Source of the DNA: Escherichia phage Killian
DNA length: 64,000 nt
Direction: 5' to 3' (one strand)
Sequence record: OQ446694.1
The notes beneath the pieces are model-generated. The model had not been told where the DNA came from. It was given only the letters and a program-made list of their open reading frames with translations, and searched no databases. Position 1 is the stretch's first letter, and every line of letters begins with the position of its first letter. Made by a program: the position numbers and the translations under genes. Below are positions 30 to 62,004 of the stretch, in pieces.

Positions 30-2978
30 ATGGCTACTTTAAAACAAATACAATTTAAAAGAAGCAAAACTGCAGGTCAACGCCCTGCTGCTTCAGTATT
101 AGCCGAAGGTGAATTGGCTATTAATTTAAAAGATAAAACAATTTTCACAAAAGATGACTCAGGCAGTGTTATAGAATTAGGTTTAAAATATGGAGGAACA
201 ATTGATGGTTCTTTAACTGTTAATGGAAGTATAATTGGAAATTTAACAGGTAACGCTGCAACTGCAACGAAATTGCAAACACCTAGGAAAATTAATGGTA
301 TATCTTTTGATGGGTCAAAGGACATTACCTTAACTCCATCTGACATAAATGTCAATAGCACAACATTTATAAAAAATAACGGCGAATTACCTGTTGACGC
401 TAATTTAGATGAGTATGGGCCTGTTGAAGAATATCTTGGAGTTTGGTCGAAATCTACTTCAACAAATGCGCAACCTGCAAATAAATTCCCAGAAGAAAAT
501 GCCGTAGGTGTATTAGAAGTATTTGTGGCCGGTCAATTTGCTGGTACTCAGAGATATACTGTAAGATCTGGTAACGTATATGTTCGATCTTTGTCTGCTA
601 AATGGAATGGTGTTAATGGTCCGTGGGGTGTGTGGCGTAATGTTCAAGCGTCAACTCGTCCACTTTCACAAACGATTGACCTTGATAGCTTGGGAGAATT
701 AGAACATTGTGGCTTATGGCGAAACAGTTCAAGCGCAATCGCATCATTTGATCGCCATTATCCAGAAGAAGGATCAGCCGCACAAGGATTTTTAGAAATA
801 TTTGAAGGTGGTTTATACACGAGAACGCAGCGTTATACTACCCGCATGGGTATGGTTTATACTCGTTGTCTCGCTGCTGCATGGGATGCTAGTGCACCTA
901 AGTGGGAGGAATGGAAGCAGGTTGGTCATGGCACACCAGCGACTTTCTATGATGGAGATCTGAATGATTTTAAAACTCCTGGGTTATATAATATTTTAGG
1001 CACTGATGCCGTTATTAACTGCCCTACAGGTGAAGGTTTACCAGCCGTTATTGTTGGTTTGCTGGAAGTTAAACAGCGTGCTTCTGGCGGTGCTATTTTC
1101 CAAAAATTTACTACTGCCGGAACAGGTGCAACTACCCGCGATCGTATTTTTGAGCGCGCATATACTGGTGGCGCGTGGGGTGCATGGAACGAAGTATATA
1201 CATCTTATTCTCTGCCAATTACTTTGGGTATGGGTGGCATTAAAGCTCAATTAGCGGAGTTAGATTGGCAAACCTTTGATTTTGTCCCTGGTAGTATGTT
1301 TAGCGTTCCTTTGAACAAAATAAAGAACATGCCAGCAAATATGGATTGGGGGACGATTGACGGAAACTTGGTTATGTTTTCTGTCGGTCCTAGCGAACAT
1401 ACTAGCACAGGGCGTACTGTTCAGGTTTGGCGTGGTACTGTATCCCAGACAAACTACCGTTATTTTGTCGTTCGTGTATTCGGTAATTCAGGAAATAGAA
1501 CTTGCACAGTTCGTCGTGTTGTTCTTGAAGACGGATCACATACTTGGACTGCTCAACAAAACTTTAGGGGATTGCTGAATATCACTGCTGCTGTTAATCT
1601 TGGCGCTAATCAGAAAATTTCACTTGCTCCAGGAGCATATATTCAAGCTCCTGCTAGCGGTTCTGGTTCTAATACTTACGCAAATCAGAATACTACCGTT
1701 GCGCCATTATATCAGGCCATTAACGATTCAAATAAAAACCAGTTTGCGCCAATTGTTAAACAGAAAAACACTGTAACAAATATTACTATGGCTTCTGGTA
1801 TGGATATTGCTAGTTCAGAATATCGTATCGTTGCTCAGGGTGATTTATCCGCTACTGGAACTACAGCCACTGAATTAGCTACATGGCGTTTCTTGCCGTC
1901 TGGCCGATTCATGTCACAAAGTCGAGTTTACGCTGGAGCAGCATTCCTTAATACCGATGGTAATATTTCTGGTTCTATCTGGAAGAAATATAATAATGCA
2001 ACCAATTTAGACGCTGCCTTGAATACTCGCCTAGGTAAAGGCGGTGATACGATGACAGGTCGGTTAACAATCAATGCACCTAATGATTCTATTGTATTAT
2101 CAACAACTGCTAGTAATTCTTTGCATATTCGCGGTGACATAGACGGGACTGGTAACTGGTATATTGGCAAGGGTGGTGCTGATAATTCGCTAGCATTTTA
2201 TAGCTATGCTTCTCAGGCGGCAGTACATATCACAAACAATGGTGAGATTGCGTTAAACCCGCAAAATACCGCAATGGTTAACGTTAACCGTGACCGTGTA
2301 CACATTAACGGTTCTGGATGGATTGCTAGACAACCGGGTGATTGGGGCAACCAATGGCGAGTAGAAGCTCCATTATTCGTTGATCATGGTTATGTTAGTC
2401 AAGATAGTTATTATCCTATTCTTAAAGCAAGAAGCGTTATAACCAATCAAGGATATAGCACCGCTGTTGACTTTGGTATGCGTCGTATTCCATCACAGTG
2501 GGGGCAAGCAATCATTCGTGTCGGATCCACGGAGGCTTCTCCTGATGCTGGACACCCACAAGCTGTGTTTGAATTCCATCATGATGGATTCTTTTATACA
2601 CCAGGAAATGGTAGCTTTAGCGATGTGTATATTCGTTCTGACTCCCGTCTCAAGATTAATAAAGAAGAATTAGAATATGGAGCAGTCGAAAAAGTTTGCC
2701 GACTAAAAGTTTATATTTACGATAAAGTTAAGTCTATTAAAGACCGTAGTGTTATTAAACGTGAAGTTGGTATTATTGCTCAGGACCTTGAAAAGGAATT
2801 ACCGGAAGCTGTATCTAAAGTTGAAGTTGATGGATCTGATGTTCTGACAATTTCTAACTCTGCTGTGAATGCTCTTTTAATTAAGGCCATTCAGGAAATG
2901 AGCGAAGAAATTAAAGAATTGAAAACACCTTTCTTCACTAAAATTGCTCGTAAAATTAGCAATTATTTTAAATTCTAA
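30..2978 (+). CDS. 37: Long tail fiber distal subunit gp37 (982 aa) with C-terminal intramolecular-chaperone-like domain
   Basis: N-terminus [13 protein letters not shown]...[16 protein letters not shown] matches the conserved gp37 N-terminus of T4 as recalled; C-terminal ~110 aa ([20 protein letters not shown]...) resembles auto-cleaving chaperone domains of phage fibers; SD AAGAGGA before ATG at 30; lies directly upstream of gp38 and t. Confidence 0.9.
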
Positions 2979-2982
2979 CAAC

Positions 2983-2999
2983 AAGGGGCTTTGCCCCCT
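2983..2999 (+). other. GC-rich stem-loop (AAGGGGC-TTT-GCCCCCTT) between genes 37 and 38
   Basis: Perfect 6-bp G/C stem seen directly in sequence, immediately after gp37 stop; no clear U-tract, so more likely an RNA stability or processing hairpin than a strong terminator. Confidence 0.4.
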
Positions 3000-3011
3000 T
3001 TGGAGAAAATT

Positions 3012-3794
3012 ATGGCAGTAGTTGGTGTTCCTGGTTGGATTGGTAGTTCATCCGTAAATGAAACAGGACAACGATGGATGAGTCAAGCGGCTGGTCAATT
3101 AAGATTGGGTATTCCTTGTTGGATGAGTCAATTTGCAGGTCGCTCAAGAGAAATTATTCACACGCTTGGAGCAGACCATAACTTCAATGGTCAATGGTTC
3201 CGAGATAGATGTTTTGAGGCAGGTAGTGCACCTATAGTGTTTAATATCACTGGAGATTTAGTATCATATTCTAAAGATGTTCCTTTATTCTTTATGTACG
3301 GAGATACACCGAATGAATATGTTCAGTTGAACATACATGGTGTAACGATGTATGGTCGTGGCGGGAATGGCGGTAGCAATAGTCCTGGCTCAGCTGGGGG
3401 TCATTGTATTCAAAATGATATTGGTGGGAGACTAAGAATTAATAATGGCGGAGCTATTGCTGGCGGCGGTGGCGGCGGTGGCGGCGGGTATTATTCTCCT
3501 TTTTCACAAATGAGATTGACCTTTGGCGGTGGCGGCGGTCGTCCGTTTGGCGCACCGGGCGGATCTATTGATATGCAATCAGGAGCAACTGCTGGTACTA
3601 TTTCTGCGCCAGGCGCAGGGTCTGTGAACGGTATCTACAACGGCGGGTCTGGTGGTGAAGTTGGCTCCGCAGGAGGTAGATGTAATATTCGTGGTCAAGG
3701 ATATGAATACGATGGCGGAGCTGCTGGTTATGCCGTCATAGGGTCTACACCGACATGGCAAAACGTTGGAACAATTTACGGACCAAGAGTATAA
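3012..3794 (+). CDS. 38: Tail fiber adhesin gp38, T2-type with glycine-rich motifs
   Basis: [13 protein letters not shown]... N-terminus and repeated polyglycine motifs ([30 protein letters not shown]) are typical of T2-like gp38 adhesins; ATG at 3012 has SD GGAG, whereas the ORF-track start at 2991 is TTG inside the hairpin. Confidence 0.85.
3462..3488. repeat. GGC/GGT trinucleotide repeat encoding the polyglycine tract of gp38
   Basis: ggcggcggt ggcggcggt ggcggcggg read directly; a second shorter GGY run at 3524-3541. Confidence 0.8.
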
Positions 3795-3825
3795 TTTTGA
3801 ATAAATATCCTTAAAAGGAGGGTCT

Positions 3826-4482
3826 ATGGCAGCACCTAGAATATCATTTTCGCCCTCTGATATTCTGTTGGGTGTTCTAGATCGCTTGTTCAAAGATAAT
3901 GCTACCGGGAAAGTTCTTGCTTCCCGGGTAGCTGTCGTAATTCTTTTGTTTATAATGGCGATTGTTTGGTATAGGGGAGATAGTTTCTTTGAGTACTATA
4001 AGCAATCAAAGTATGAAACATACAGTGAAATTATTGAAAAGGAAAGAAATGCACGCTTTGAATCTGTCGCCCTGGAACAACTCCAGATAGTTCATATATC
4101 ATCTGAGGCAGACTTTAGTGCGGTGTATTCTTTCCGCCCTAAAAACTTAAACTATTTTGTTGATATTATAGCATATGAAGGAAAATTACCTTCAACAATA
4201 AGCGAAAAATCACTTGGAGGATATCCTGTTGATAAAACTATGGATGAATATACAGTTCATTTAAATGGACGTCATTATTATTCCGACTCAAAATTTGCTT
4301 TTTTACCAACTAAAAAGCCTACTCCCGAAATAAATTACATGTACAGTTGTCCATATTTCAATTTGGATAATATCTATGCTGGAACAATAACCATGTACTG
4401 GTATAGAAATGATCATATAAGTAATGACCGCCTTGAATCAATATGTTCTCAGGCGGCCAGAATATTAGGAAGGGCTAAATAA
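3826..4482 (+). CDS. t: Holin T (218 aa)
   Basis: MAAPRISFSPSDIL...ARILGRAK is near-identical to T4 holin as recalled; single N-terminal TM segment; SD AAGGAGGG before ATG. Confidence 0.95.
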   Translation: MAAPRISFSPSDILLGVLDRLFKDNATGKVLASRVAVVILLFIMAIVWYRGDSFFEYYKQSKYETYSEIIEKERNARFESVALEQLQIVHISSEADFSAVYSFRPKNLNYFVDIIAYEGKLPSTISEKSLGGYPVDKTMDEYTVHLNGRHYYSDSKFAFLPTKKPTPEINYMYSCPYFNLDNIYAGTITMYWYRNDHISNDRLESICSQAARILGRAK

Positions 4483-16134: not shown

Positions 16135-17951
16135 TACTGGCTCATCCATTCTTTACGAAGATCAGCATTATCTCCCATAAGCATTTCAAAAAGATCTTTC
16201 CAGTTCTCAGGAAGTTTAACAACGTCATAAACTGGGTTCTGAATCATTTCACGGTATTCAGATTTTTCCAAAGAGCCAAGTCCCTTAATATAACGGATGC
16301 TATGTTTAGGTAGAGCATCTTTGGCACTCTCATATTCAGCGACTGTATAAAACCATTCTTGTTTTTTACCGACCTGAGCGATGATTACAGGAGTTTTAAC
16401 AAAACGAATTCTTCCTTGTTCAAACAGTTCTGGCCAATTACTAAAAAATCCGAGCAGAGAAGGATAAATACTTCCTAGACCATCATGGTCGGCATCGGTC
16501 ATAATTGCAATATTATGATAATTCAAGTTTTCGGCTTTTTCACCAAGAACTAATCCAGTGATTGCGCAAATATCAAACAGTTCTTTGTTTTTAAGCATAT
16601 CAGCATAAGACATACCCCAACTGTTGAGAACTTTACCGCGCAATGGATAACCGCCATGAAGTTCTTTATCACGAACATCAATAAGATATCCGATAGCAGA
16701 ATCGCCCTCAGTCAAGAAAAGAGTAGTATCAGCATCTTTACCACAAAGATTCGCTTTGATATGTTTATGAACCTTAGCTTTAGAGGCCTTTTTAGCTGCT
16801 TTAGTTTCTGCTGCCTTTTCTGCCGCCAATTTACGAGCCAAGGCAGCTTCAATAATTGGCATTAAAATTGCTTCATTATTTAAAATAGCACGTGAAATCT
16901 TTTTAGCATCAAGCTGAATATGACTACGGATTTCACCAAATGGAGAAGTCAGACGCTCTTTAGTTTGAGAGTCAAATCGCATGTTTTTCATATCACGAAC
17001 AAACATAACGATAGTCAAACATTCTTTAACACGTGCTTTAGTTACGTCAATTTTAAATTTACGTTTGATTTGTGGAATAAGGTCTTCACAAATATCATCC
17101 ATAACACAGTCAATGTGATGGCCACCATTCTTAGTATGAATGTTATTGACGTATGTTAATTGACGAAAACCATCGGGTGAACGACCAACCGCAATAGAAC
17201 AGTTTTCTTGTTCTTGAACGATAGCATGCTCATCATATTGGCGTGCGTATTTCTTAAAATTACCCTGAACCTTTTTACCATTAAAGGTAAATTGAATATC
17301 AGGATAAACTACTGCAAGTGTCTGGAGACGATCTAGTGTAATGTCAAGATAAACTTGAGATAGCTCATTAGTTTCAAATGACATAAAATCAGGAATGAAA
17401 GTAACACGTGTTCCTTTCCATTTTCCAGGAATATCTTCCCATGATTTATTTTCCATGCCATTTGAACAACGAACTACAATATTATTTTGACCGTCGCCAG
17501 TTTCACCGACAAACATCACAGAAAAAATGTTAGTTAAACTAGAACCAACACCGTTCATACCGCCAGTGACGCGTTCTTTGTCATCACCAAAGTTACCACC
17601 TGCTTTTGGAATAGTCCAGGCAGCAACAGGACCAGGAATTTCTTCACCAGTAGGTGTTTTAACCATCGCTTGTGGAATACCACGACCATTATCTTCAACT
17701 GTTACTTGGTTGTTTTTGATAGTAACATTAATTTTATTCGCGAATTTAAACTTAGTACGAATACCTTCATCTACTGAGTTATCGATAATTTCATCAATAA
17801 GCTTAACAAGACCAGGTACATACTGAACACTTTCCCATTTACCAAACAGAAAGCGCTCATGCATTTCATTAGCGGAAGAGCCAATGTACATGCCGCTACG
17901 CTTTTTGATATGTTCAATATCGCTCAGAATTTTAATTTCATTCTTAATCAT
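16134..17951 (-). CDS. 39: DNA topoisomerase II large subunit gp39, uninterrupted (605 aa)
   Basis: MIKNEIKILSDIEHIKKRSGMYIGS...; GyrB-like ATPase and TOPRIM regions in one ORF; ATG at 17951 with SD GAGGA (track start is GTG one codon upstream). Confidence 0.92.
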   Translation of the reverse strand: MIKNEIKILSDIEHIKKRSGMYIGSSANEMHERFLFGKWESVQYVPGLVKLIDEIIDNSVDEGIRTKFKFANKINVTIKNNQVTVEDNGRGIPQAMVKTPTGEEIPGPVAAWTIPKAGGNFGDDKERVTGGMNGVGSSLTNIFSVMFVGETGDGQNNIVVRCSNGMENKSWEDIPGKWKGTRVTFIPDFMSFETNELSQVYLDITLDRLQTLAVVYPDIQFTFNGKKVQGNFKKYARQYDEHAIVQEQENCSIAVGRSPDGFRQLTYVNNIHTKNGGHHIDCVMDDICEDLIPQIKRKFKIDVTKARVKECLTIVMFVRDMKNMRFDSQTKERLTSPFGEIRSHIQLDAKKISRAILNNEAILMPIIEAALARKLAAEKAAETKAAKKASKAKVHKHIKANLCGKDADTTLFLTEGDSAIGYLIDVRDKELHGGYPLRGKVLNSWGMSYADMLKNKELFDICAITGLVLGEKAENLNYHNIAIMTDADHDGLGSIYPSLLGFFSNWPELFEQGRIRFVKTPVIIAQVGKKQEWFYTVAEYESAKDALPKHSIRYIKGLGSLEKSEYREMIQNPVYDVVKLPENWKDLFEMLMGDNADLRKEWMSQ

Positions 17952-18286: not shown

Positions 18287-18658
18287 TCACTTAAATTTAA
18301 TGGCTTGAAGGAGACTAATAATTCTCAAGCGACTTCTTTCATCTTTAACTGTAAAAGAAAGAGGGTCACCAGATTTCATAGTGATGGTGCATCCAAAATC
18401 AAAATCTTCAGGAACTTCTTCGAAGAAGTCAAATTCTTCATCATAAATTAGAACATTACTCTGAAAACTGTGAAGAATTTTTCCATCATTTCCAGATGCT
18501 GTACTAATCATTGTAACATTATTACCTTTCATATCTTCAACGATAAATTCGCTTGTAGATATTACGGCATTAATAGAACCATTCCTATAAATAGCAGAAA
18601 ATAGATATTTCTTTTCTTCACCTTCGCGAATGCGATATTTCTTACCAATTTTAAACAT
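18287..18658 (-). CDS. Hypothetical protein (123 aa)
   Basis: ORF track, ATG start. Confidence 0.55.
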   Translation of the reverse strand: MFKIGKKYRIREGEEKKYLFSAIYRNGSINAVISTSEFIVEDMKGNNVTMISTASGNDGKILHSFQSNVLIYDEEFDFFEEVPEDFDFGCTITMKSGDPLSFTVKDERSRLRIISLLQAIKFK

Positions 18659-28661: not shown

Positions 28662-28907
28662 TTAACCACCAGTTACTTTCCACAAATCTTCGTTTGCAGC
28701 AATCCATGCATCACGTTGATTTTCTTCGTATACAGTAGTATATGCTGCTTTTTCTGAAGGGAATATCTGGTAATGAGCACCAGAAATTTTGTGAACGTCA
28801 GAATAAAGAGGGAAAGCTACAGAAATTTCTTTTCCTTCAATTTTCTTATTTCCATCTAATTTCTGCTCAAATGTTTTAATATTAACATAACCGCGAGTAC
28901 TAGCCAT
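28662..28907 (-). CDS. soc: Small outer capsid protein Soc (81 aa)
   Basis: MASTRGYVNIKTFEQKLDGNKKIEGKEISVAFPLYSDVHKISG... matches T4 Soc as recalled. Confidence 0.93.
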   Translation of the reverse strand: MASTRGYVNIKTFEQKLDGNKKIEGKEISVAFPLYSDVHKISGAHYQIFPSEKAAYTTVYEENQRDAWIAANEDLWKVTGG

Positions 28908-28980
28908 GTAATTCTCCTTTTATTTAAATTACATGACTATTTATAATAAATTCTCACAGCTTTTAAGCCGTCGTTTATAT

Positions 28981-29499
28981 TTAATAACCTCGGTCTTGAC
29001 GAGCGAAGTTTTCAGCATTCTTCAGATAATAAAGTTTAAAGATTTCTTCAGCAGTAAGGCCGAGACCTTGGAACATGTTCAGAACGAAATGAAGAATATC
29101 AATCATTTCGAATTTAATTTCCAACTGGTCTTGTGGAGACAAATCAGTAATCAGAGTTTCACGACGTTCACCATGCTGCGACTTCCAAGGCTTCCATACA
29201 GCAGATGCATCTTTTTCACCATTGCTCATACCACCAAGAGAAGTCAGAAGTTCACGGAATTCATCATCAATGTAATCTTTCTGATTACGCAGCCAATCGA
29301 CAACTTCGCCTGCAGTAGCCAAATCATCAGGATGACGGTTATATTCAGGTTTATCTTTAGCTAAACGAACTTGCAGAGATTTCTGCATATCAAGCATAAC
29401 CTGTAGCGGGTCTTTTTCATCACCGAGAATATCCCAGTATTCATTTTGAGCTTTATCAGCGCCTTCGATCAGTTGACTACATTCGTTGAAATGTGGCAT
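28981..29499 (-). CDS. 56: dCTP pyrophosphatase gp56 (172 aa)
   Basis: MazG-like EExxE motifs (DDEFRELL, HFVLNMF); size and synteny. Confidence 0.85.
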   Translation of the reverse strand: MPHFNECSQLIEGADKAQNEYWDILGDEKDPLQVMLDMQKSLQVRLAKDKPEYNRHPDDLATAGEVVDWLRNQKDYIDDEFRELLTSLGGMSNGEKDASAVWKPWKSQHGERRETLITDLSPQDQLEIKFEMIDILHFVLNMFQGLGLTAEEIFKLYYLKNAENFARQDRGY

Positions 29500-29500
29500 G

Positions 29501-30151
29501 TTATTTTTCCTTTCTTATGAAGTTTTCTATCATATGTCTATAGCAGATATTAGGATAACCTGCCTTGACAGCTATTTTATTAAATTTTGTGCGCTTAGGC
29601 CTATTATTATAAACCCATAATTCATAAAGCGCATCATAACTATTCCATATTTCTCCTCGCCTAGGATTTGGTAAACCATATCGAGGTGAATTTTTACCGC
29701 TAAATCTTCCTTTTCGGGCTTTACTCATATTAGCCTTGGCTTCATCGGATATAATTTTACCTTTATGAGCTAGACGCATTTTGGCTTTAGTTTCTTCTGG
29801 GGTCTTTTTGCCTTTAATCCATGACGGCTTGCCATATCTAGGATTATTTTCACCCGAGAAAAGAGCAGAGTTTTGAATTTTAAGGGTTTCTATTAATCTA
29901 CTTGTTAATTTAACACCTTTATTATATCGCATTAAATTTACAGCATAATGCAATCCTCTCACATCTGGATATATTTTAGTTAATAATCTATGAGCTATAA
30001 AATGCTCACGCGCAGTTAACTCAACAAAATTGTTTTTGTCATCTGCTCCTCCCATACATCTAGGAATTATATGATGGCGTTCTTTATATCCACCAAGATG
30101 CCGGCATTTAGCTTTTGTAATTAAAGCCGAGTAAATTTTTTGGTAATTCAC
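29501..30151 (-). mobile_element. Free-standing HNH homing endonuclease gene (216 aa, GTG start)
   Basis: HNH core ERHHIIPRCMGGADDKNNFVELTAREHFIAH plus repeated NPRYGK-type motifs; GTG start with SD AAGGA; stop abuts gene 56 start. Confidence 0.75.
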
Positions 30152-30221
30152 ACATATCCTTTCAATTCATGGATTAGTAGATTAATTATACAATAAATAT
30201 ATAAAGCAATAAGGAGGACAT

Positions 30222-30422
30222 ATGGTACAAAAATTAATGGCACTTGTCGATGCCATAAAAGGTAATAAGAAACGTATAGCTTTTACTATTTCTGCTATGG
30301 TAGGAATTTTACTCTGGAATTTTGTTTTATCGCCAATTGCTATTGCTCATGGCGTTAATATTCCAGTAATTACTCTTGATACATTCGTAGATTTAGCATT
30401 TGCTTTGGTTGGGTTAATTTAA
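30222..30422 (+). CDS. Small two-helix membrane protein on the opposite strand (66 aa)
   Basis: ATG preceded by strong SD AGGAGG; hydrophobic segments ISAMVGILLWNFVLSPIAIA and VDLAFALVGLI; stop overlaps gene 61 stop on the other strand. Confidence 0.5.
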   Translation: MVQKLMALVDAIKGNKKRIAFTISAMVGILLWNFVLSPIAIAHGVNIPVITLDTFVDLAFALVGLI

Positions 30423-31447
30423 ATCTTAGCATATTTAGATAGTCGCATTTTAGCCATCAACCCTTGGGCAATATTATTTTTCATATATTCCATAATTTGT
30501 TCAGGGGTTGCACCTTCCTTTCTAATCATATCATTGACATCTTTTGATTTCCAGGGAGATTTGTCCCAAAACATAACCCTTTCTCCTGCATCAACTAATT
30601 TAGTCATTCGTTTAATAGTGTCAGGGTGACGAGGTTCATTATCTAAAACCCACACGCGTCTATCTTTAAATGGAACAATTTCTAGGTCTAATTGACCACC
30701 TGTAATAGCTATACCATTTTCAATAAAAAGTGAATCTATAGGTCCTTCTAGAACATATACATCGCCATCTTTAACCCGTTCGACTCCATAGATTTTTGTT
30801 GCCTCAGGATAAGCTTTGATGGTGATATATTTTTGAGGAGCATCTTTCTTTAATGCACGTCCTTGAAAAGACTCAGCTTTTCCATTAGCATTATAAATTG
30901 GAATAACAAGACGAGGCTCAGGTATTTCCTTTTTATATGTTCCTGGTGCTATACTATTAACTAATTTAGGCCATTCAGTTGTAAACCAAAGATATTTCCA
31001 TTTATCCTTTGGAATACAACGAGCTTTTACATATTTTATAATTGGATGGTCTTCCGCCAGTTTATCTAATCTAATACATGACGGAAGAGATTTAATTATT
31101 TTCTTCTCAGGTTGTTTAGGAAGTTCTTTAGGTTTTTCTACTGGACGACTTTTACCTTTTTCTTTTCTTATTTCAAAGATATACTCACGATATAAATCAG
31201 GTTCAAACTCCTTTAAATATATTCCGATTGGTGCATGATAGTTACAGTTATAACAATGAATATTTCCTTCATTATTATCGCCATAATACCATCCACGGGC
31301 TTTATTTTGGTCGGTTTTTGAATCTCCACAAACAGGACATCTAAACCGTAATTTAAAAGTTGAACTATTATTTACTTGTGCGAATTTAGGTAAATGAGCC
31401 AATGCACGGTATGCAAACTCATTATCAATCCAAGGTATTGATGACAT
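30419..31447 (-). CDS. 61: DNA primase gp61 (342 aa)
   Basis: Zinc ribbon CPVCGDS...CYNC and TOPRIM region; 342 aa as in T4; synteny with gene 41. Confidence 0.93.
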   Translation of the reverse strand: MSSIPWIDNEFAYRALAHLPKFAQVNNSSTFKLRFRCPVCGDSKTDQNKARGWYYGDNNEGNIHCYNCNYHAPIGIYLKEFEPDLYREYIFEIRKEKGKSRPVEKPKELPKQPEKKIIKSLPSCIRLDKLAEDHPIIKYVKARCIPKDKWKYLWFTTEWPKLVNSIAPGTYKKEIPEPRLVIPIYNANGKAESFQGRALKKDAPQKYITIKAYPEATKIYGVERVKDGDVYVLEGPIDSLFIENGIAITGGQLDLEIVPFKDRRVWVLDNEPRHPDTIKRMTKLVDAGERVMFWDKSPWKSKDVNDMIRKEGATPEQIMEYMKNNIAQGLMAKMRLSKYAKI

Positions 31448-31449
31448 TT

Positions 31450-31614
31450 TTACTCTTCTTTTTCTTTAGATTCCTCTTTTTTCTTTTTAGGAATCTGTTC
31501 AGGACCTTTATTTACTACAGCACCTGACGTTGTTCCAGTGGAGATATTTTCAGGATTACCACCTGAATCTCCAGCTACCATATCTTCTTTAATAAATTCT
31601 TTATATGTTTTCAT
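31450..31614 (-). CDS. Small hypothetical protein (54 aa), 61.1 position
   Basis: Hand translation MKTYKEFIKEDMVAGDSGGNPENI... Confidence 0.4.
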   Translation of the reverse strand: MKTYKEFIKEDMVAGDSGGNPENISTGTTSGAVVNKGPEQIPKKKKEESKEKEE

Positions 31615-60944: not shown

Positions 60945-61946
60945 TTACTTAATTAACTGTAAAGCTTGTTCAAGACGATCCAGGCGATTAACAGATTCTT
61001 CCCAAATCCTTTTAGCCTGCTCATATTCTTTCTGCGCTTTATTAGAAATTTCTAGAGCTTCTTTATAAGCTTTTTCTAATGCAATAACTTCTGGACGAAT
61101 TTCTACCGATTCAGGTGAATCATCAAGATTATCCATTAGTTCCTCAAGGGTAGTTTCTTCTTTAGGAGTATTCACAATTTCCTCACATTTTTGTTGATAA
61201 ATTTCTTTATCAGTCGGTGAGTACGCGCACTTTACTTCACGAAGACTAACTACAATTTTGTATCCTTCCCAACCGCGCATATTTTTAAAAGGATAAGTAT
61301 AAATATTTTCTACTGTTTCCATACAAAGTAATGCGGTTTCTAATTGACGAGTTATAGTGCTAGCAATTGAGAAAAATTTATTAATATTCTTTTGGTTAGC
61401 GTCTGGTGTAAAAAATTCATAATTCACAAAAATAGCTGCTTTATTTTTATCAAGCTCGTATTCTTTTATGATAATCATATCAGAAGCCCAAGGATGAATT
61501 TGACGATAATCGCCATAGCATAATTTAGAAGCTGATTTTAGAATTTGCTTTTTGAAAAGTCTGAAATTACTAATCCAACGACGAGTAAAAATATTCTCAG
61601 GGTCTTCTTTATTATTAAGATGATAAGAATTAACATCACCGAACCAATTATATCCTACTACATCTTTGGTTCGTTTAATTTCTTTCCCAAAATTACCAAG
61701 AATATCTCGATTAACCAAATATGAAAGAAGACGAGACTCTTTAAAGGTTTTCTTGATAACATCTTTATCTACACGGCTAGAAATTTTACGAATTTCATGA
61801 ATAAATTTAGTAGAAGAAACAATACCTGCATCAACACTATTGAGCCATTGATTGATAATAGAAATAACGCTATTTTGACCAAACATCGGTATAGCTTTAT
61901 CATCAATAACACTATTGAATGATTTGATATATTCGTTACGAGTCAT
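60945..61946 (-). CDS. Paralog family member 2 with C-terminal coiled coil (333 aa)
   Basis: ORF track trimmed to the ATG with SD GAGGAG downstream of the promoter; ESRLLSYLVNRDILGNF block. Confidence 0.55.
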   Translation of the reverse strand: MTRNEYIKSFNSVIDDKAIPMFGQNSVISIINQWLNSVDAGIVSSTKFIHEIRKISSRVDKDVIKKTFKESRLLSYLVNRDILGNFGKEIKRTKDVVGYNWFGDVNSYHLNNKEDPENIFTRRWISNFRLFKKQILKSASKLCYGDYRQIHPWASDMIIIKEYELDKNKAAIFVNYEFFTPDANQKNINKFFSIASTITRQLETALLCMETVENIYTYPFKNMRGWEGYKIVVSLREVKCAYSPTDKEIYQQKCEEIVNTPKEETTLEELMDNLDDSPESVEIRPEVIALEKAYKEALEISNKAQKEYEQAKRIWEESVNRLDRLEQALQLIK

Positions 61947-61974
61947 ATTAATCTCCTCAGTAGAAAGTAAGAAC

Positions 61975-62004
61975 ATTATACCACATCCTTGTGGCAAAGT
62001 AAAC
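61975..62004 (-). promoter_or_regulatory. Early sigma70-type promoter (consensus -10)
   Basis: Minus strand GTTTAC-18 nt-TGgTATAAT, nearly identical to the module at 16105-16134. Confidence 0.55.

Follow-up and report, generated by a model that had tools for sequence, protein, structure and literature searches.

A putative MobE-like homing endonuclease gene and the conserved small gene dam.1 in the gene 56-61 interval of Escherichia phage Killian

Seven free-standing endonucleases of bacteriophage T4 are promoter-less cassettes of the same kind as the one described here (PMC2988022). MobE, a protein of 141 aa, is encoded at the nrdA/nrdB site; its gene is intergenic, lacks a promoter, is co-transcribed with a conserved neighbor, and is present in some T-even phages and absent from others (Wilson & Edgell 2009, PMC2790892). 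SegF belongs to the GIY-YIG family, is encoded on the soc/56 side of gene 56, and cuts gene 56 (PMC2988022). T4 also encodes dam, the gene for its GATC N6-adenine methyltransferase, within the interval between gene 56 and gene 61. Adjoining dam in T4 is a copy of a small open reading frame (ORF) that is named dam.1 in T4T (HM137666), RB69ORF029w in RB69, and elsewhere RB32ORF030w. The known members of this family are annotated only as hypothetical proteins.

We analyzed a stretch of 64,000 nucleotides of Escherichia phage Killian (OQ446694.1), called the window below, in which the 56-61 interval has a different content (Table 1). The interval very probably holds two unrelated things, a selfish MobE-like HNH gene and a resident late membrane gene, dam.1, with dam simply absent. 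A sequence-only reading of the same DNA had proposed that the two genes form a single mobile cassette. Its description of the layout is accurate: the 216-aa minus-strand ORF starts with GTG, the 66-aa plus-strand ORF is preceded by AGGAGG and, further upstream, by a box resembling TATAAATA, and the convergent stop codons of dam.1 and gene 61 overlap in TTAA (bases 30419-30422). It had also pointed to the 66-aa ORF as the lone plus-strand gene of the region. This ORF is indeed the sole plus-strand ORF with a strong ribosome-binding site in a gap between minus-strand genes, once the exceptions at one end of the window, genes 37, 38 and t (30-4482), are set aside.

Table 1. Position of the features discussed, numbered from the first base of the window.
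Feature	Position	Strand	Basis
holin t	3826-4482		elsewhere in window
soc, directly after gene 56	28662-28907		ORF call
gene 56, gp56 dCTPase/dUTPase	28981-29499	-	ORF call, Pfam dUTPase_2
HNH + NUMOD3 gene, MobE-like, free-standing, 216 aa, GTG start	29501-30151	-	ORF call, NUMOD3, HNH, PHROG 655
gene 56 ribosome-binding site GAAAGGA, inside the last HNH codons	29508-29514	-	sequence, EC121 alignment
second GAAAGGA copy, HNH gene ribosome-binding site	30157-30163	-	sequence, EC121 alignment
MotA-type middle promoter for the HNH gene and gene 56	30185-30208	-	sequence; annotated in relatives
predicted gp55-dependent late promoter AATAAATA	30192-30199	+	A(-13) variant of TATAAATA
Shine-Dalgarno AGGAGG, ATG 4 nt downstream	30212-30217	+	sequence
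dam.1-family gene, 66-aa predicted small membrane protein	30222-30422	+	ORF call, family matches
intrinsic-terminator-like hairpin for gene 61 transcripts	30227-30256	-	ATGGCA...TGCCAT then TAATTTTTG
gene 61, gp61 DNA primase	30419-31447	-	ORF call

The larger of the two genes was recognized as encoding an HNH endonuclease from its translation alone, and profile searches agree. The 216-aa protein matches Pfam NUMOD3 over two stretches (30.7 bits, cut-off 20.4) and PHROG 655, 'homing endonuclease' (E 5.5e-59). Its match to Pfam HNH is weak and lies under the cut-off (15.5 bits, cut-off 21.4); the HNH nuclease motif HHIIPRCMGGADDKNNFVELTAREHFIAH is present. Over residues 1-81, the MNYQKIY start included, identity to the HNH nuclease domain at the N-terminus of T4 MobE is 63%. 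The gene shares with mobE its free-standing, intergenic and promoter-less state and its presence/absence polymorphism among T-even phages. It differs from mobE in its GTG start, in its site 5' of gene 56, and in the length of its product, which carries two C-terminal NUMOD3 repeats. A PDB sequence search with the protein gave no match at E<=0.01, and no second HNH paralogue was found within the window. From these similarities, we infer that the 216-aa ORF encodes a selfish, MobE-like free-standing homing endonuclease.

Alignment of the interval with that of EC121, a phage that has neither the HNH gene nor dam, gives the insertion boundaries that the sequence-only reading had left to such an alignment. 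The HNH gene alone is inserted, as an ORF-sized segment of ~650 bp with a GAAAGGA repeat on both flanks, and the insertion stops 70 bp short of dam.1. In a Klebsiella Jiaodavirus phage, as in Tequatrovirus, the gene occupies this position, 1 nt away from the ATG of gene 56. The middle promoter upstream of it consists of a MotA box, TGCTTTA (30208 to 30202), an 11-nt spacer and the -10 element TATAAT (30190 to 30185). Counterparts carry the labels 'predicted middle promoter' in fPS-90 and mot-box/P(M)16.53 in the T4 record X01416, and the predictions of Nolan et al. include an RB69 middle promoter, Pm:16038, 5' of gene 56.

The start of gene 56 carries what may be a trace of the insertion. In the window, its first ~33 nt are an HNH-linked allele, ATGCCACATTTCAAC..., with the protein start MPHFN. 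This allele is common to all five of the HNH-bearing genomes, and every HNH-less genome has ATGGCWYACTTTAAY instead, with the protein start MA[YH]FN. The same split is seen between ...AATAACATGCCACATTTCAAC... (5/5 HNH-bearing genomes) and ...AAATAATGGCWYACTTTAAY (every HNH-less genome). In the Klebsiella Jiaodavirus phage, agreement with the Tequatrovirus HNH-linked allele is limited to the first ~33 nt of gene 56. The pattern suggests a co-conversion signature; it and the proposed activity and target site draw on a small sample of five HNH-bearing sequences, which may share the allele by descent.

These features are consistent with the following mechanism. The HNH module has inserted, promoter-less and ORF-sized, between the middle promoter and the gene 56 start codon, where it is predicted to be co-transcribed with gene 56 from the MotA-dependent promoter. 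In a mixed infection, the HNH protein would cleave genomes without the HNH gene close to the start of gene 56; repair would then copy the HNH gene in, along with ~33 nt of flanking gene 56 sequence. It would be a second selfish endonuclease tied to gene 56, and its homing, like that of SegF, would co-convert gene 56 sequence, from the opposite side of the gene and with a nuclease of another family. No segF was found in the window, where soc follows gene 56 directly.

The presence of dam in the T4 56-61 interval, which the sequence-only reading had noted, is confirmed by the T4 record, and dam occupies the same interval in T2, ELT1, IME537 and Lutter. The reading was also right that the window holds no DPPY-motif methyltransferase. 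A tblastn search with T4 Dam against the 64-kb window found none (best E 0.76), and no DPPY motif occurs there in any frame. The nearest motifs in the window are DPPF in a 138-aa ORF and SPPF in a 103-aa ORF. T4-type dam (>=90% identity) was found in 182 records, against ~500 Tequatrovirus records with dam.1, or ~36%. Because dam is a minority accessory gene of a variable interval, its absence from the window needs no displacement event. By these counts, dam is simply absent here, as it is from most Tequatrovirus genomes, and was not displaced by the HNH gene.

It is easy to see why the HNH gene and the 66-aa ORF might be taken for a single mobile cassette, with the membrane ORF as its cargo, that took the place of dam or pushed it out: HNH genes are mobile, and the window has the two ORFs side by side and lacks dam. 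The genomes of relatives give this explanation almost no room. dam.1 is present without the HNH gene in T4, EC121, RB69, VR25 and Potts1, and the insertion ends before dam.1 is reached, so the two do not make a single unit. Relatives with both ORFs plus dam, which the sequence-only reading had itself said would speak against it, exist: the HNH gene, dam and dam.1 are all together in the 56-61 interval of ELT1 and IME537, which argues against replacement or displacement. The counts agree, with dam.1 in 692 records and the HNH gene (>=90% identity) in only 55, a small number also beside the ~500 Tequatrovirus records. Among the relatives compared, the presence of dam.1 does not co-vary with that of the HNH gene. 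At the level of these genome comparisons, the HNH gene, dam and dam.1 are independent of one another.

The second gene of the interval belongs to a family that is already named in T4T and RB69, and as a discovery the locus is ordinary. The window ORF, dam.1 of T4T, RB69ORF029w, RB32ORF030w and PHROG 2024, which the window ORF matches, form one family in which nothing essential differs, and the T4T and RB69 genes have the same position and convergent orientation beside gene 61. The T4 copy is 92% identical to the window ORF in amino acid sequence and the RB69 copy 51%. Matches were found in 692 phage records that span five or more genera; the position is invariably the 56-61 interval, on the opposite strand, and dam.1 is near full length or intact in 685 of the records. 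Carriers include RZ and Klebsiella phages as well as EC121, RB69, VR25 and Potts1; vB_EcoM_005 (locus L020), whose region looks misassembled, was left out of the synteny comparison. A profile search of 1.84 billion representatives returned 112 dam.1-family clusters at 90% identity, and their named members are T4-group phages (Straboviridae) or bacterial records carrying them. On this distribution, dam.1 is a resident gene conserved across Tevenvirinae and not cargo. The ORF is unannotated in the T4 reference records NC_000866 and AF158101 and in the original record X01416, so proteomic and transcriptomic studies that use those annotations cannot see it.

The silence of these three T4 records would be expected if the 66-aa ORF were a chance ORF in an AT-rich spacer whose only real contents were the terminator of gene 61 and the middle promoter of gene 56, and these two minus-strand elements really do lie in or beside dam.1. 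The hairpin overlaps dam.1 codons 2-12, and the fPS-90 record annotates a terminator at its position. Conservation and the pattern of substitution contradict this explanation, to which we give next to no credence. In the ORF frame of dam.1, pN/pS is 0.17 with zero stops; in the other five frames of the region it is 0.25-2.8, with 1-8 stops. Comparisons inside a genus give dN/dS values of 0.10-0.29. From one genus to another, synonymous sites have reached saturation, yet amino acid identity is still 48-52% and the length still 65-66 aa. Four residues, W32, N33, P38 and G44, do not vary in three subfamilies. We also considered the conservation of the 5' end of dam.1 as a mere constraint of the gene 61 terminator and rejected it, because the hairpin is not conserved outside Tequatrovirus and is absent in Mosigvirus and Gaprivervirus, in which the amino acid sequence at that position is conserved. 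These substitution patterns show dam.1 to be a coding gene under purifying selection.

Several features suggest that dam.1 is made late, from a predicted gp55-dependent promoter with a transcript that would start near 30205. The A(-13) variant of the late octamer found here occurs at 9/50 T4 late promoters (PMC2988020). An ATAAATA core is kept in every lineage ~18-33 nt before the dam.1 ATG, with differing flanks (in T4 at 17710-17716 of NC_000866), and an AGGAGG or AAGGAG ribosome-binding site is likewise kept in all of them. The predicted T4 promoter, GATAAATA, and that of Gaprivervirus, CATAAATA, are single deviations from the late consensus, and the record of phage Lutter annotates an 8-nt plus-strand promoter at this position. 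The window has ~4-fold fewer copies of the late-promoter motif than expected (9, against 39+-6.6; for WATAAATA, 7 against 24.5). The octamer AATAAATA also precedes holin t and gene 49 in the window, and TATAAATA precedes soc. No late promoter at the RB69 dam.1 site was found among those coordinates in the supplement of Nolan et al. that were checked. Early and middle T4 transcripts are all of polarity opposite to the dam.1 strand (PMC2988020). Since only late T4-type transcripts use this strand, and since dam.1 has a late octamer and a strong ribosome-binding site, we infer late expression. The literature on dam.1, RB69ORF029w and RB32ORF030w, on T4 ribosome profiling and on small ORFs yielded no transcript, footprint or peptide evidence. 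The idea of late-expressed cargo thus survives in its first half: the conserved ATAAATA core and ribosome-binding site favor late expression, and the presence of dam.1 in T4 and EC121, which lack this HNH gene, goes against cargo.

A late plus-strand transcript could also act mainly as RNA, shutting down primase by antisense pairing or transcriptional interference, with the ORF incidental. No plus-strand terminator was found in 30422-31600, and the stop codons of dam.1 and gene 61 overlap, so a late transcript would necessarily continue into gene 61 as antisense. Some T4 sites are known to be transcribed from both strands, at different times (PMC2988020), and the window has two further plus-strand TATAAATA sites that no ORF follows. 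Against a primarily RNA function, the signature of purifying selection is confined to the dam.1 ORF frame, the length and motif of the protein are conserved at ~25-50% identity across genera, and the strong ribosome-binding site recurs in all lineages. In Jiaodavirus, a bidirectional terminator hairpin lies between dam.1 and gene 61, so antisense read-through into gene 61 is not conserved, and in RZ and locus L025 another gene sits between the two. We consider it very unlikely that the transcript works mainly as RNA. An antisense side effect may nonetheless occur in Tequatrovirus.

The sequence-only reading had called the 66-aa product a membrane protein, and three predictions bear this out. 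By sequence and hydropathy, an N-terminal amphipathic helix is followed by a basic cluster (KGNKKR), a transmembrane helix at ~19-42, an HGVNIP loop and an acidic, hydrophobic C-terminal helix; the last 24 residues include two Asp and zero basic residues and end in ALVGLI. The AlphaFold2 model agrees with this profile (helices 2-12, 16-42 and 52-63; mean pLDDT 76). For RB69ORF029w, an entry in the supplement to PMC1524935 gives one TMHMM transmembrane segment, residues 21-41. dam.1 is probably a bitopic inner-membrane protein. In this topology, the amphipathic helix at the N-terminus and the basic cluster would be on the cytoplasmic side, the single transmembrane helix would bear the invariant W-N...P...G motif, and the short C-terminal helix, acidic and hydrophobic, would lie in the periplasm. 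Alternatively, the second hydrophobic segment could cross the membrane as well, making an N-in/C-in hairpin.

Similarity searches gave no lead to function. Ten family members compared with Pfam (E<=10), and the protein compared with PADLOC and PHROGs, matched only PHROG 2024, 'unknown function'. A search of BFVD with the AlphaFold2 model returned family members only, the rest being noise at E>0.1. The profile search of 1.84 billion representatives found no homologues beyond the family, save one match to a PQQ-like beta-propeller repeat protein, P0037 (E 1.5e-4). We judged this match spurious, because the similarity is confined to LLWN[FY]..SSPAvANG, a short hydrophobic motif whose spacing differs.

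Class II holins and pinholins, the T4 antiholin RI, and Imm and Sp are like dam.1 in size, in their one or two hydrophobic helices and in their presumed action at the inner membrane. The likeness is a functional analogy, as none has sequence or profile similarity to dam.1, and Imm and Sp come from early genes of the opposite strand. With its small size, probable late expression and transmembrane helix, dam.1 fits the outline of a holin, pinholin or antiholin-type lysis protein. One UniRef/BFVD entry for the OE5505 homologue is even named 'Holin', a name without traceable evidence, and Met1...Lys4...Met6 of Tequatrovirus dam.1 resembles a dual-start motif. Met6 is missing from the Mosigvirus and Gaprivervirus copies, however, and the protein has no charged hydrophilic C-terminal tail. 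The gene sits between 56 and 61 rather than beside lysis genes, the phage already encodes holin T, and no Pfam holin family matches dam.1 even at E<=10. A lysis protein of this type is therefore unlikely. Our best guess, a tentative one, is that dam.1 modulates a late envelope event: lysis timing, holin/antiholin behavior or membrane integrity. It is a guess because no Pfam, PADLOC or structural match hints at a function. It is conceivable, if somewhat doubtful, that dam.1 is a functional late inner-membrane protein, absent from the T4 reference annotation, with a role new among T4 genes. Such a protein might regulate lysis timing or lysis inhibition, act late on membrane integrity or against abortive infection, or serve head assembly or DNA packaging as a membrane partner.

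This locus is not the site of a cassette for defence or exclusion that drove out dam. The putative HNH element would offer a clean natural case of intronless homing, at an identical site in Escherichia and Klebsiella phages and with a short co-conversion tract. The interval also illustrates how tightly T-even intergenic regions may be packed: ~70 bp hold a predicted MotA middle promoter on one strand and a predicted late promoter and ribosome-binding site on the other, and the gene 61 terminator lies within the first codons of the opposite-strand gene. Finally, a small gene conserved in at least five Tevenvirinae genera and under purifying selection is missing from the T4 reference records. 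If dam.1 does have a role new among T4 genes, the W-N-x4-P-x5-G motif of its transmembrane helix would mediate a specific intramembrane interaction.

The window comes from a T4-like (Tequatrovirus) genome, and the sequence-only reading described its 56-61 locus accurately: the ORFs, the stop overlap, the AGGAGG, the octamer and the absence of dam (no T4 Dam homologue and no DPPY motif in the window) were all confirmed. That reading took the HNH endonuclease gene and the 66-aa plus-strand ORF, here dam.1, to be one mobile cassette that had replaced or displaced dam, with the membrane ORF as its possible cargo. This interpretation is refuted by the criterion which that reading had itself set, homologous phages with both ORFs plus dam in the interval.

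Features of the 56-61 locus and the start of the window
Feature	Coordinates	Strand	Remark
Late genes 37, 38 and t	30-4482	+	start of window; minus-strand early region after
gp56 dCTPase	28981-29499	-	ORF call
HNH ORF, 216 aa, GTG start	29501-30151	-	ORF call
-10 TATAAT	30190->30185	-	MotA promoter
MotA box to -10 spacer		-	11 nt
MotA box TGCTTTA	30208->30202	-	MotA promoter
Predicted late-promoter octamer AATAAATA of dam.1	30192-30199	+	sequence
AGGAGG ribosome-binding site of dam.1	30212-30217	+	sequence
dam.1 ORF, 66 aa	30222-30422	+	ORF call
Gene 61 terminator hairpin	30237-30256 + T-run	-	inside first dam.1 codons, Tequatrovirus
gp61 primase	30419-31447	-	ORF call

A megablast search with the locus returned 728 phage records with several 56-61 architectures. 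EC121 has dam.1 alone between the two genes and T4 has it beside dam (segF/56/dam/dam.1/61), which argues against a single cassette with HNH. In ELT1, HNH, dam and dam.1 lie in that order in one interval, contradicting displacement. T4-type dam (at least 90% identity) occurs in just 182 records, versus about 500 Tequatrovirus records with dam.1, and the interval lacks dam in RB69, VR25, RZ and Potts1. No sign of HNH displacing dam was seen among the architectures compared; dam, HNH and further ORFs are gained and lost independently in a variable slot running from the gene 56 middle promoter to dam.1. Another variable occupant is an additional 186-aa predicted ORF without assigned function, found between dam and dam.1 in some Tequatrovirus (Lutter locus L017, 273-833; IME537 locus L021, 1102-1662).

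Far from being cargo, dam.1 is a conserved resident of the locus. A tblastn search places it in 692 records, with a nearly full-length copy in 685, and its range covers at least five named genera: Mosigvirus (~51% identity), Gaprivervirus (~48-51%) and Jiaodavirus have homologues, as do other Klebsiella phages (e.g. Potts1, Marfa) and one metagenomic relative. All of these copies are found between genes 56 and 61, encoded on the other strand from the flanking genes. The T4 copy is intact at NC_000866 17738-17938 and its protein is 92% identical to the window's, without annotation in that record; it is named dam.1 in the T4T record, RB32ORF030w in RB51 and RB69ORF029w in RB69. Searching more widely with a profile yielded 112 clusters (90% identity) of 41-73 aa (mostly 63-68), the named ones being T4-group phages, and an exhaustive one of 1.84 billion representative proteins recovered nothing beyond this small family as members. 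W32, N33, P38 and G44 are invariant across its three subfamilies. A weak match (E 1.5e-4) to six stretches of PQQ-like beta-propeller blades in P0037, a 1255-aa metagenomic protein, runs through LLWN[FY]..SSPAvANG and was judged a spurious likeness of hydrophobic motifs.

Gaprivervirus VR25 carries tandem plus-strand paralogues (locus L006, 2495-2692 and 2701-2901; 23% mutual identity over the family core), the second belonging to a subfamily whose other members come from Klebsiella phages. RZ retains just a truncated remnant of this second paralogue and has a different HNH gene between dam.1 and gene 61. The convergent stop codons of dam.1 and gene 61 overlap in the window because 30419-30422 reads TTAA. 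The same 4-nt overlap occurs in distant relatives (L023, 3198-3201; L025, 3204-3207), and in L025 it is kept though the partner is a different 124-aa ORF, not primase; in Jiaodavirus (L019) a GC-rich bidirectional terminator hairpin separates the two genes instead. We left vB_EcoM_005 (L020) out of the synteny comparison because its primase and gene 56 regions (700-1800) appear as duplicated, frameshifted fragments, probably a misassembly of the GenBank record.

Substitution patterns show that dam.1 is protein-coding. Its dN/dS is 0.10-0.29 within genera; between genera, where synonymous changes have reached saturation, a length of 65-66 aa and ~50% identity are still retained. Pooled within-genus pN/pS, computed as a control, is 0.17 in the dam.1 frame, with no stops, against 0.25-2.8 and 1-8 stops in the other five frames. 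Constraint from the gene 61 terminator hairpin could have produced such conservation, but Mosigvirus and Gaprivervirus lack the hairpin and still conserve the peptide there (..AIKG..), which rules this out.

It is also very probably a late gene. All lineages have an ATAAATA core some 18-33 nt before the ATG, with AGGAGG or AAGGAG after it; the rest of the upstream sequence is unalignable between genera and differs even between dam+ and dam- Tequatrovirus. This core is strongly avoided in the window, being about 4-fold depleted: ATAAATA occurs 9 times (39+-6.6 expected from dinucleotide-preserving shuffles) and WATAAATA 7 times (24.5+-5.1). At four of the seven WATAAATA sites a ribosome-binding site and ATG follow within 26-38 nt, and these sites precede known or inferred late genes: holin t (AATAAATA, identical to the dam.1 site), soc (TATAAATA), gene 49 (endonuclease VII homologue; AATAAATA) and dam.1. 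A(-13) replaces T at 9 of 50 listed T4 late promoters (Geiduschek and Kassavetis, PMC2988020), and a passage in Nolan et al. (PMC1524935) describes -13 as poorly conserved, A or T. The Lutter record annotates an 8-nt plus-strand promoter at the octamer position. Together, these points make gp55-dependent late transcription starting near 30205 a well-founded inference. Two perfect plus-strand TATAAATA octamers have no downstream ORF and are antisense inside minus-strand ORFs (18586-18593 in 18287-18658, 123 aa; 61298-61305 in 60945-61997, 350 aa); given the depletion, they may be late antisense promoters.

The 216-aa ORF is, as proposed, an HNH endonuclease, with a MobE-like domain (63% identical to that of T4 MobE), NUMOD3 repeats and a PHROG 655 match. 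The MNYQKIY start shared with MobE validates its GTG start. The comparison with EC121 shows an insertion of ~650 bp, which amounts to the ORF alone; GAAAGGA, the ribosome-binding site of gene 56, recurs as a short flanking repeat (29508-29514 and 30157-30163). A canonical MotA middle promoter precedes the gene, which makes it a cassette with no promoter of its own, transcribed together with gene 56 as are seven of the free-standing T4 endonucleases with their neighbours (PMC2988022). Some 33 bp (30185-30217) interleave this promoter with the predicted dam.1 late promoter and its ribosome-binding site on the opposite strand, the late octamer sitting in the spacer between MotA box and -10 element.

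All five HNH+ genomes examined (the window, fPS-90, ELT1, IME537 and Klebsiella phage 15882-3-1) share a variant gene 56 start, AATAAC-ATG-CCA-CAT-TTC (MPHF); HNH- genomes of four genera all have AAATA-ATG-GCW-YAC-TTT (MA[YH]F). In the Klebsiella phage, a Jiaodavirus, the HNH gene is 92% identical and occupies the same site; its gene 56 agrees with the Tequatrovirus HNH+ allele over just the first ~33 nt, the remainder being Jiaodavirus-like. A homing endonuclease that leaves a co-conversion tract would be expected to produce such a pattern, and the predicted target site would be the gene 56 start, protected in the HNH+ allele. T4 SegF is already known to target gene 56, coming from its other flank (PMC2988022): SegF, a GIY-YIG enzyme, is encoded between soc and gene 56, downstream of 56, whereas the HNH gene lies upstream. 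In the window, segF is absent between soc and gene 56 (28908-28980).

Hydropathy and an AlphaFold2 model (mean pLDDT 76; helices 2-12, 16-42, 52-63) indicate that dam.1 has an amphipathic N-terminal helix, a basic cluster (K13-GNKKR18), a long hydrophobic helix (~19-42) bearing the invariant W-N...P, a conserved (H)G-x3-P loop and a short hydrophobic C-terminal helix with acidic residues. An entry in the supplement to PMC1524935 gives the RB69 homologue one transmembrane segment (residues 21-41, TMHMM). The positive-inside rule favours an N-in/C-out topology; an N-in/C-in hairpin is also conceivable. Pfam, PADLOC and structural searches gave no match pointing to function, and a literature search found no paper on the gene. 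A holin was considered and judged unlikely: the family lacks a charged C-terminal tail and has neither lysis-cassette context nor a holin profile match, and the phage already encodes holin t. We settle on a late protein of the inner membrane that would act on some late event at the envelope; any specific role in such an event could be offered only with low confidence.

What is left at the locus is a known kind of selfish endonuclease, next to an already known hypothetical-protein family (PHROG 2024, 'unknown function', E 1.6e-30) that is unannotated in T4 reference records.
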